DNA of 13,657 nt from a virus. Below are positions 3,001 through 6,000 of this stretch, in pieces (positions within the stretch are counted from its first letter, which is position 1; each line of letters begins with the position of its first letter). Made by a program: the position numbers. Location: UHGV virus genome UHGV-1773670. One strand, written 5' to 3'.

Positions 3001-6000
3001 TTTCTCTCCCGACAATGTGAAGCGCATACAGTTCACGCCAGAATTGAATGATGAAGCGTGATAAGTGGCTATTTTGTGGTATAGGTTTATGCGCTAAAAC
3101 AATCAATTAGCTCAGTCAATGATCTCTATTGTCCTGCAACTTGTTTAGTGAGTCTTAGGATGATGCTGCCAAGAATAGCTATGAATTTTTCACGATTATT
3201 GGCATCTGGACGGTTAAGATTCAGCTCAATGTCTCCAACTTTTATGCCGAATCTTGCTGAGTTAATGAGATCTTCCTGACCACCTCGGCTAATAAATGTT
3301 CGTAATGATTCAATTTCTGCGTCAGTTATTTCCGGGTTGTCTATTTGATGAGAGCGAACATTTCTTATTCTATTTAGGCGTTTAAGTTCTGCGACGGAGT
3401 GTTCATTTAGGCCGAGGTTGGCAGCTAGCTGAATTTTTGCGGCATAGGTCATGGTTAAGTTTTCACCAAATCCATCAAATAGATTTTGGTTACCTACAGC
3501 GGCGCAACAAAATGCCTCAATCATTGCTTCTGTAATCAGATGTACTCTTAAAACCAAACCAATATCATCTTCAGTATTTACTAACCTTTCAATTCGTTGC
3601 CAAGTTGCTTCGTTCATTATGAACTTTGATTCAAAAATTTCAGGATTCATTTATTTACCTTATCAGCAGGGGAAAATATGGCGCTCACTGACAAACAAGA
3701 AATGTTCTGTCGCGAGTACCTCATCGATTTAAACGCCACGCAAGCGGCTATTCGGGCGGGGTACAGCGCAAAAACAGCCAACCGTACTGCGTCCGAAAAC
3801 ATGTCAAAACCTGACATACAACTCAGAATCTCCGAATTGAAAGCACAACGCAATGACTCTGTTGGAATAAATGCAGAATATGTACTTAATCGCCTTATTG
3901 AAATCGACCAGATGGATGTGCTCGACATTCTCCTGCAAAACGGTGAGTTAAAGCCCATTAAAGACTGGCCTAAGGTATGGCGCACAACGTTATCAGGAAT
4001 GGATGTTGTGGAGATGGTATCCGCAGATAGTGCAGCACTCCTGAAGAAAATCAAATGGCCTGATAAGGTTAAAAACCTCGAACTTCTTGGTAAGCATGTT
4101 TCTGTTCAGGCGTTTAAAGAACAAGCTTCTCACGAACTAACAGGCAAAGACGGCGGCGCAATCCAGATTGAAACATCACCGATGAGCACTCTATTCGGAA
4201 AATGACCTCGATTAATCCTATCTTTGAACCGTTCATTGAGGCGCATCGCTACAAAGTCGCCAAAGGCGGTCGAGGTAGCGGTAAGTCATGGGCAATTGCG
4301 AGGCTTCTTGTTGAAGCGGCGCGTCGGCAGCCTGTGCGTATTCTTTGCGCTCGTGAGCTGCAAAACAGTATCAGCGATTCGGTAATCCGGTTGCTTGAAG
4401 ACACCATCGAGCGTGAAGGATATTCGGCTGAGTTTGAAATTCAGCGTTCCATGATTCGTCATCTCGGAACGAATGCTGAATTCATGTTCTACGGCATCAA
4501 AAACAACCCGACGAAGATTAAATCGCTCGAAGGCATTGATATCTGTTGGGTGGAAGAAGCTGAAGCGGTAACGAAGGAATCATGGGATATCCTGATACCA
4601 ACCATCCGCAAGCCATTTTCCGAAATATGGGTGAGCTTCAACCCGAAGAACATACTCGACGATACCTATCAGCGGTTCGTCGTAAATCCTCCTGATGATA
4701 TTTGCCTGCTGACGGTGAACTACACCGACAACCCGCACTTTCCTGAAGTTCTCCGTCTGGAGATGGAAGAGTGCAAACGCAGAAATCCGACACTGTATCG
4801 TCACATCTGGCTTGGTGAGCCAGTAAGCGCAAGTGATATGGCAATCATCAAACGTGAATGGCTTGAAGCCGCAACCGATGCGCACAAGAAACTCGGATGG
4901 AAAGCGAAAGGCGCTGTTGTCTCTGCGCATGACCCGTCAGATACAGGGCCGGATGCTAAAGGTTATGCATCGCGTCACGGTTCGGTTGTTAAGCGCATTG
5001 CCGAAGGTCTGCTGATGGACATCAATGAAGGTGCTGACTGGGCAACTTCGCTGGCGATTGAAGACGGTGCTGACCATTACCTGTGGGATGGTGATGGTGT
5101 TGGTGCTGGCCTACGCAGACAGACAACGGAAGCGTTCTCCGGCAAGAAAATCACCGCCACGATGTTCAAGGGCAGTGAATCGCCATTCGATGAAGATGCG
5201 CCGTATCAGGCCGGAGCATGGGCTGATGAAGTCGTACAGGGCGACAACGTTCGCACTATTGGTGATGTGTTCCGCAATAAGCGAGCGCAATTCTATTACG
5301 CGCTGGCTGACAGGCTGTATCTGACATATCGGGCGGTTGTTTACGGTGAGTATGCAGACCCCGACGACATGCTGAGTTTCGACAAAGAAGCGATAGGCGA
5401 GAAGATGCTGGAGAAGCTGTTTGCAGAACTGACGCAGATTCAGCGCAAATTCAATAACAACGGGAAGCTGGAGCTAATGACTAAGGTCGAAATGAAGCAG
5501 AAGCTCGGTATTCCATCTCCTACGTGAGGTGAATAAATGCCGATTGTTGGCTGGTATCGGTGGTGTCAACTCAAACGCTCCGAGCGTAAATGACATCGGC
5601 AATACGCTTCAGCTTATCAGGCAGAACAATGATATTGAGCGTTCAGGCGCTAACAATGTTGGGCTGACTGCTTTGCAAGGCCTTTCAGGTATTGCGGGTG
5701 TTTTTCAGCAGGAAAAGCAGGCTCAGCGGCAGAAAGAATTTCAGCAGGCATACGCTAAAGCTTATGCGTCTGGTGATCGCGGTGCTTTGCGTCAGTTGGC
5801 TACTCAATATCCAGACCAGATTGAATCTGTTCGTAAAGGCATGGGATTCATTGATGAAGACCAGCGTAATTCTATCGGCACCTTAGCGGCTGGCGCACGC
5901 CTTGCGTCATCGTCTCCAGAAGCAATGCAATCATGGCTGCAAAACAACGCCAAGGAACTGACTCGCGTCGGTGTTGACCCTAACAGCGTTGCTCAGATGT

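Follow-up and report, generated by a model that had tools for sequence, protein, structure and literature searches.

Introduction

In the P22-like phages the late genes stand in the order terS-terL-portal-scaffold-coat-gp4-gp10-gp26-gp14-gp7-gp20-gp16, and this canonical order is intact in CUS-3, in Bas106 and in the AH21A060 prophage. CUS-3 of E. coli K1 RS218 (CP000711.1) is the nearest named phage to the element described here, which was found in UHGV virus genome UHGV-1773670, a stretch of DNA of 13,657 nucleotides referred to below, at its full length, as the window. In this element the order is not kept; the genes from portal to gp7 are gone and a 23-nt gp4/gp10 island is left between terL and gp20. 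We consider it very probable that the window represents the late half of a P22-like (Lederbergvirus) prophage of the CUS-3/Sf6/HK620 type, which has decayed to a fixed cryptic remnant in the E. coli chromosome.

Decay of related prophages has been described previously. By Connolly et al. 2022, CUS-3-like phage are called 'prone to decay', with structural genes that are often pseudogenes or lost, and the interval between pgl and bioA is given as a second site of insertion, together with sizes of 20-50 kb (PMC9659370). Here, the breakpoints of one such remnant are placed at the level of single bases.

Results

The junction between terL and gp20

The first-pass annotation of the window had placed the terL stop at 5525-5527 and a gp20-like open reading frame (ORF) at 5529, and had taken the missing head genes as the result of a deletion of roughly 8 kb. 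These coordinates were right: the terL ORF occupies 4202-5527 and belongs to Pfam Terminase_3, and the ORF that follows in the frame of gp20 (5529-6884, first codon GTG) belongs to Inj_translocase. The alignment to an intact P22-like genome that had been proposed as a check was carried out by blastn against CUS-3, followed by sequence comparison with Bas106, AH21A060, E41 and 2013C-4991, and the breakpoints were mapped on CUS-3 and these intact relatives. Positions 4121-5522 of the window correspond to CUS-3 22350-20948 (96%), ending 95 nt short of the CUS-3 terL stop at 20853. The match resumes at 5521-5545, which is 100% identical to CUS-3 15731-15707; the CUS-3 annotation puts the end of gp4 at 15725 and the start of gp10 at 15715.

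There are, then, two junctions in the head region, each with a short microhomology (Table 1). The loss at junction 1 amounts to 5,218 bp (CUS-3 20947-15730) and comprises the terL 3' end (its last 30 codons), portal, scaffold, coat, a small ORF and nearly all of gp4. The GATT of junction 2 lies within an imperfect patch, AAATG(G)C(C/G)GATT, that is common to the gp10 start and to gp20 codons 8-11. Here gp10 from codon 4, gp26, gp14, gp7 and the first ~10 gp20 codons are lost, a segment of ~3,309 bp when measured on CUS-3 (about 15706-12398) and of 3,452 bp when measured on the AH21A060 prophage. The total head-region loss, 8,527 bp in CUS-3 coordinates, agrees with the size originally estimated, but it is divided between two junctions on either side of an island of 23-25 nt and is not a single deletion. 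The alignments show that the virion-assembly genes were taken out by two microhomology-mediated (illegitimate) deletions, at the TA and the GATT, with the gp4-stop/gp10-start island left behind.

A single deletion running from terL to gp20 was also considered. It is ruled out by the 25 nt that separate terL from gp20 and that match the CUS-3 gp4/gp10 junction at 100% identity.

Could a functional phage carry terL next to gp20 naturally? When positions 3600-9000 were compared by megablast with 50,697 phage records, 114 records matched and none of them held both halves in one place; therefore the adjacency is not a natural phage gene order. The other finding that would have spoken for a working phage, a portal or coat gene elsewhere in the same prophage, was looked for in the complete genome of strain EC931 (NZ_CP049118.1) and was not seen there either.

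Table 1. Positions of genes, gene fragments, junctions and insertion sequences (IS) in the window
Feature	Position	Strand	Basis and remarks
IS5 terminal part	1-56		terminal repeat CTTATTCGCACCTTCC at 41-56; IS5 transposase directly left in EC931
abc2 anti-RecBCD gene, intact	320-613	-	PHROG 656, E=4e-54; EC931 annotation phage anti-RecBCD protein
ssb 3' fragment	614-685	-	stops at early-region deletion junction ~683-686
lambda-family holin 3' fragment	683-790	+	683-1677 = CUS-3 25067-24073; PGAP 'holin, incomplete, missing N-terminus'
endolysin	774-1250	+	97% to CUS-3 R/Rz (with Rz); GH24 annotation in EC931
Rz spanin	1247-1684	+	97% to CUS-3 R/Rz (with endolysin); Pfam Phage_lysis
KilA-N protein	1887-2417		
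unknown-function gene	2523-2729	+	between KilA-N and terS; PHROG 5901 or 5483 (one each for this and the next gene)
unknown-function gene	3126-3650	-	between KilA-N and terS; opposite strand to late operon, moron-like; PHROG 5483 or 5901
terS	3678-4205	+	175 aa, apparently intact; Pfam Terminase_2, E=1e-39
truncated terL	4202-5527	+	441 aa; Pfam Terminase_3; Sf6 gp2-like 1-440, gp4 last codon (ACG, Thr) and gp4 TGA
junction 1 (terL / gp4 3' end)	5521-5522	+	2-nt microhomology TA; overlapping blastn segments 4121-5522 and 5521-5545
retained island, 23-25 nt	5523-5545	+	last gp4 codon and stop, gp10 Shine-Dalgarno (SD) GAGGTG (5526-5531), first three gp10 codons ATGCCGATT (5537-5545)
orphan 18-codon ORF	5537-5593	+	opened by gp10 start codon, out of gp20 frame; frame translation
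junction 2 (gp10 nt 9 / gp20 nt ~33)	5542-5545	+	4-nt microhomology GATT; alignment with four intact gp20 5' regions
gp20-like ejection protein, truncated	5546-6884 (ORF 5529-6884)	+	from ~codon 11; lacks its own ribosome-binding site (RBS)
gp16-like DNA transfer/ejection protein	6881-8722	+	613 aa, full length; PHROG 770 aa 1-613, E=2e-278; PF26808 Phage_P22_gp16
sieA-like superinfection exclusion gene	8745-9239	-	164 aa; PF26849 SIEA; PHROG 7745 over aa 73-236 of 8745-9455 ORF
Arc/Mnt-family repressor, immI region	9928-10179	-	PF03869 Arc, PF11423 Repressor_Mnt, PHROG Arc-like families
endosialidase tailspike, K1 capsule-specific	10326-13271	+	981 aa, intact; PF09008 Head_binding E=1e-66 and endosialidase domains
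neuO start (polysialic acid O-acetyltransferase)	13425-13478	+	7 AAGACTC repeats; Tandem Repeats Finder period 7, 7.3 copies, 100% matches; CUS-3 annotation: neuO poly-psi repeat
IS1 left end	13479-13657	+	directly 3' of seventh neuO repeat; 100% to EC931 IS1A copy (locus L003, 20781-20960); starts GGTGATGCTGCCAACTTACTGAT

The junction in independent assemblies

The window resembles a short-read contig, with IS sequence at both ends (IS5 on the left and IS1 on the right), and it might be supposed that the head genes are really present and that terL was mis-joined to gp20, or the region collapsed, during assembly. The exact 441-aa truncated terminase (TerL') is indexed in 397 blocks of a public assembly collection, from which 24 contigs were read and nine places are shown. 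These nine are two closed chromosomes (CP049118.1, OZ040824.1), three draft isolates, metagenomes from ENA and JGI, and a Logan run. At all nine the gene order and the ybhB-bioA flank are identical and the 71-nt string that spans the junction is present; each locus aligns to the window over 10.3-13.5 kb and differs from it there by 0-2 single-nucleotide polymorphisms (SNPs). The junction also occurs in one IMG/VR contig and in two further metagenome contigs, and at least 12 independent assemblies carry it. An artefact would have to arise identically in closed chromosomes, draft isolates, ENA and JGI metagenomes and the Logan assembly, and an assembler would find no repeat to collapse at junctions with only 2 and 4 nt in common; this explanation is therefore extraordinarily improbable, and the concern over misassembly that accompanied the initial description can be set aside.

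The IMG/VR contig, the only hit in that database, comes from the same JGI metagenome sample as one of the nine loci (L009) and does not count as evidence of virion origin. Among 5,426 complete RefSeq E. coli genomes, only EC931 carries the junction, at 100% identity. The carriers thus point to a clonally inherited, fixed remnant and not to a mobile element; vertical inheritance would be favoured over mobility because all copies seen occupy a single chromosomal site with near-zero divergence.

The truncated terminase and ejection proteins

The terL product was described initially as shorter than typical, and this is borne out by the lengths of 441 aa in the window, 471 aa in CUS-3 and 470 aa in Sf6. 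Residues 1-440 of TerL' correspond to residues 1-440 of the 470 of Sf6 gp2 with one substitution (phmmer against PDB). Junction 1 happens by chance to be in frame, such that TerL' ends in a gp4-derived threonine followed by the gp4 TGA. In Sf6 gp2, D244, D296 and D444 make up the nuclease site and N441 provides a further ligand for the metal (PMC4678813). The N441-L-A-D444 segment is encoded within the deleted 95 nt, TerL' has no residues 441-470, and the full RNase H-like site (D244, D296, N441, D444) is not present. Without the metal ligands N441 and D444, TerL' should be nuclease-dead and unable to cut DNA.

The upstream terS is itself mosaic. It resembles the CUS-3/Sf6 gene only over the final ~85 nt (from 4121), the remainder being a different, longer allele (175 aa vs 146 aa); therefore packaging specificity may differ from that of CUS-3.

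The truncated gp20 product (gp20') is recognised by PF16928 Inj_translocase, the P22 gp20 family (E=2e-76, aa 6-220 on profile 2-217), and by PHROG 917 (aa 3-451 on profile 10-509). The intact homologues in Bas106, AH21A060, E41 and 2013C-4991 begin MATWQGSNGGLLAGIGG, and the window reads ..RLLAGIGG. In-frame starts are limited to GTG 5529 and TTG 5544/5547, and gene callers vary between GTG 5529 (451 aa) and TTG 5544 (446 aa; metagenome callers). It had been stated that the ORF has no ATG or clear SD sequence. This holds for the gp20 frame but not for the region overall, since the orphaned gp10 start codon (ATG 5537) and its GAGGTG are both retained, one base out of the gp20 frame. Ribosomes loading at this orphan RBS would be expected to read the 18-codon out-of-frame ORF.

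RefSeq/PGAP lists both the truncated terL (WP_072222285.1) and the N-truncated gp20 (WP_072222284.1, GTG start) as ordinary coding sequences (CDSs), not as pseudogenes.

The prophage as a whole and its early region

In EC931 and in all flanked loci, the element is integrated between ybhC and ybhB-bioA, which is the lambda attB region (pgl...bioA). The gene order annotated in EC931 is integrase, excisionase fragment, LprI-like, DUF2737, IS5, DUF5405 fragment, abc2, holin fragment and then the window genes, and the remnant is ~18.5 kb in size compared to 40.2 kb for CUS-3. Late proteins of P22 type are present, namely gp20 (Inj_translocase), gp16 and a tailspike with a P22 head-binding N-terminal domain. 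The element is a derivative of a P22-like prophage and an incomplete member of that group. As in neuO-carrying CUS-3-like K1 prophages, an endosialidase tailspike is followed by a neuO AAGACTC tract, and the pgl-bioA position is the published second site.

The EC931 annotation lists no portal, scaffold, coat, gp4, gp10, gp26, gp14 or gp7 gene between the integrase and ybhB, in agreement with the original description of a prophage without capsid genes. Since these eight are absent, it is to be expected that neither procapsid, portal nor tail hub can be made. Nor does the annotated EC931 element include cI, cro, O, P, Q, a repressor, N or nin, and its excisionase is annotated as incomplete.

At the left end, positions 540-685 match the HK75 abc2 gene and ssb 3' end (98.6% identity), and no phage record covers at least 80% of window 540-780 in one place. 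Because the ssb 3' end meets holin homology at 683 and no phage spans that point, a third deletion joins the two fragments; erf, kil, cIII, N, cI, cro, cII, O, P, nin and Q are gone, roughly 12 kb by CUS-3 coordinates. It took away the recombination, immunity, N, replication, nin and Q functions; in addition xis is truncated, and IS5, with IS1 in this strain, has inserted. The IS5 copy lies in the early-left part of the prophage, and locus L006, which has no IS5, begins matching at window position 56. A scan for promoter and terminator consensus sequences found promoters at the level expected by chance (24 found vs 20.9 expected) and nothing upstream of the lysis genes. The late operon is probably silent, because Q and the late promoter have been lost.

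It is clear that what remains differs from a phage able to form particles: the head and tail-needle gene set, the immunity, replication and Q functions, an intact excisionase and a full-length TerL are all lacking. The first-pass annotation had left the choice between a cryptic remnant and a helper-dependent element, and the first of these is supported. The second would be a mobile element (a satellite resembling the phage-inducible chromosomal islands, PICI) that borrows its capsid from a co-resident or superinfecting P22-like phage and redirects packaging or host range. The retention of int, of terS (with any pac site within it), of gp20'/gp16 and of an intact tailspike would suit such an element, as would its wide occurrence as a conserved unit. 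Compared with satellites of the PICI, capsid-forming PICI (cf-PICI) or P4-like kinds, an integrase is present and the excisionase is a fragment (EC931 annotation); no replication module with primase/helicase and ori and no helper-responsive repressor occur in the annotated element. Without immunity, N, replication, nin, a repressor or derepression module or Q, and with xis reduced to a fragment, it could probably neither excise nor amplify. Further, TerL' is without the two nuclease metal ligands and gp20 is without its start and RBS, the breakpoints fall within genes at microhomologies, as in random decay, with IS5 and IS1 inserted, and all copies seen are at one chromosomal site and hardly diverge. 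A helper-dependent element is thus a very unlikely account of this locus.

The right end

Beyond gp16 come sieA, the Arc/Mnt repressor, the tailspike and neuO (Table 1). Three of the checked ORFs without assigned function fall into uncharacterised PHROGs, and another is a SieA-like superinfection exclusion gene. A 236-aa ORF at 8745-9455 (-) overextends sieA; the annotated homologues are 164 aa. The tailspike gene is 99.0% identical to CUS-3 siaK1 over 3,200 nt (CUS-3 2319-5518), up to the neuO repeats.

The number of neuO repeats (window tract 13430-13478) is 4, 5, 7, 8, 9, 18, 22, 26 or 35 across loci L003-L012, which are otherwise 99.98-100% identical, and neuO is in frame at only some of these copy numbers. 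The spread fits slipped-strand phase variation, to which short-read collapse may contribute. Ten other loci with the repeat tract (EC931 counted twice, as L003 and L005) read on into the neuO coding sequence GTTTTCCGTTGATG. In the source strain of the window neuO is broken by IS1, unless the IS1 sequence reflects a join at the contig end.

The right-hand genes that serve lysogenic conversion or may be self-promoted (sieA, mnt/arc, neuO) would be the potentially host-useful remainder of the prophage, and the keeping of neuO through decay fits the published accounts of CUS-3-like prophages (PMC9659370). It is possible to take this further and to suppose a domesticated remnant, in which the right-hand block (gp20', gp16, sieA, mnt, tailspike, neuO) is under selection and gp20' is translated from GTG 5529 by coupling. 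The spacing of the terL' TGA and GTG 5529 would suit termination-reinitiation, the gp16, tailspike and sieA frames are intact, and a repeat number that ranges from 4 to 35 in otherwise identical copies is what a working phase-variable locus would be expected to show; moreover, neuO has been argued to be kept as protection against K1 phages (PMC9659370). Intact ORFs are nevertheless to be expected in any case at 0-2 SNPs over the aligned length, so that they give no signal of purifying selection. The window's own strain has neuO interrupted by IS1, the late block has no evident promoter once Q and the late promoter are lost (see the scan above), and no role is known for ejection proteins or a tailspike without a virion. 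We therefore regard domestication of this block as decidedly unlikely, and a decayed remnant remains the preferred explanation.

Independent remnants

Loss of virion genes in this region is not confined to the window's clone. The prophage of MSB1_9I (NZ_LR890508.1; L015 11855-12260) also occupies the ybhC attB; in it a fragment of the terL 3' end runs straight into the final ~55 nt of gp4. The junction (CUS-3 20895 to 15780) is other than that of the window, gp10 onward is intact, and an erf-to-terL deletion is also present. The comparison indicates that loss of portal to gp4 happened independently in MSB1_9I.

The second case, PSJ-29 (NZ_AP027639.1; L016 12186-12200), is at argW with gp4 intact. 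Its gp10 codons ATGCCGATT are joined in frame to the interior of gp20 (MPI-TALQG...) with gp10 to gp7 lost; the right breakpoint is 121 nt downstream of the window's within gp20, and the left breakpoint lies within 2-4 nt of the window's. Its gp20-gp16 region is 95.8% identical to the window, and the MSB1_9I/PSJ-29 alleles stand at 95-96%.

The window element and the PSJ-29 prophage, which differ by 4% and occupy different att sites, have thus broken in the same 2-4 nt of gp10 and rejoined in the 5' part of gp20. It could be that the ATGCCGATT codons of gp10 are a hot spot where deletions recur in P22-like prophages, through a structure- or homology-based mechanism or through selection; in the latter version, virion assembly could be silenced while the block of ejection proteins, tailspike and neuO is kept under a usable RBS. 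We regard such a hot spot as unlikely. Pattern scans for other junctions after GAGGTGAATAAATGCCGATT found only the same element in IMG/VR, and one chance hit, in an unrelated contig, among the GTDB representatives. In metagenomes, the D,V scan was empty and the D,T scan returned only window-type contigs and one chance hit. The PSJ-29-type junction is a singleton among the complete genomes. The shared breakpoint is either due to chance or hints weakly at a hot spot, for which the two cases are the only support.

Discussion

The best explanation of the locus is a prophage that has lost its head genes at two junctions and its early genes at a third, and that has since been inherited with the chromosome. 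Several points weigh against this explanation or limit it. The head-region junctions may have arisen in one complex event or in two sequential ones; synthetic queries for either junction by itself found no single-junction intermediate in the 5,426 complete genomes, and brought up instead the unrelated remnants of MSB1_9I and PSJ-29. The deletion sizes were measured against CUS-3 and AH21A060 in place of the true ancestor, the intact parent of the mosaic not having been found. Silence of the late genes and loss of the TerL nuclease are predictions from the sequence. Finally, all copies are nearly identical and so give no measure of selection on the retained genes.

The finding has a practical side. 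With truncated terL and gp20 annotated as intact CDSs, prophage predictors or terminase typing could mistake this locus for a live P22-like phage. It also provides a base-resolved example of neuO prophage decay in K1-type E. coli in which the capsule-modifying end is kept, and is relevant to studies of K1 capsule O-acetylation and of phage resistance, although it opens no new biological question. The class of object, a decaying CUS-3-like neuO prophage, has already been published; what is added here is the breakpoint map at base level, the gp4/gp10 island and the loss of the TerL active site.

The cryptic prophages of E. coli K-12 (DLP12, Rac, Qin and e14) offer a broad parallel. They are lambdoid, are locked in place by internal deletions and IS elements, and keep a few conversion, lysis or exclusion genes; they belong to other phage lineages and occupy other sites than the window element. 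Unlike them, the window element is clone-specific, occurring in one of the complete RefSeq E. coli genomes searched.

Closer comparisons are with the phages of its own group. Sf6 and HK620 have terL DNA that is 96.5-96.7% identical to that of the window, and TerL 1-440 equals Sf6 gp2 bar one substitution, yet both are viable phages in which a terL of 470 aa is followed by portal and not by gp20. The decayed neuO prophages of Connolly et al. (CE10, SCU-175) are likewise reduced and of variable size, lie at the pgl...bioA site and have lost structural genes; the available parts of that study give sizes and pseudogenes and no breakpoints (PMC9659370). CUS-3 itself has late genes of the same P22-like types, with terL at 96%, endolysin/Rz at 97%, the tailspike at 99% over 3.2 kb and the gp4/gp10 island at 100%. 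It differs in being 40.2 kb long with the complete terS-to-gp16 order and a full early region, at argW, whereas the window element is a mosaic, with the lambda attB site, a lambda-type integrase, a different terS body and other gp20/gp16 and immI alleles, and has lost ~8.5 kb in the head and tail-hub genes and ~12 kb in the early ones.

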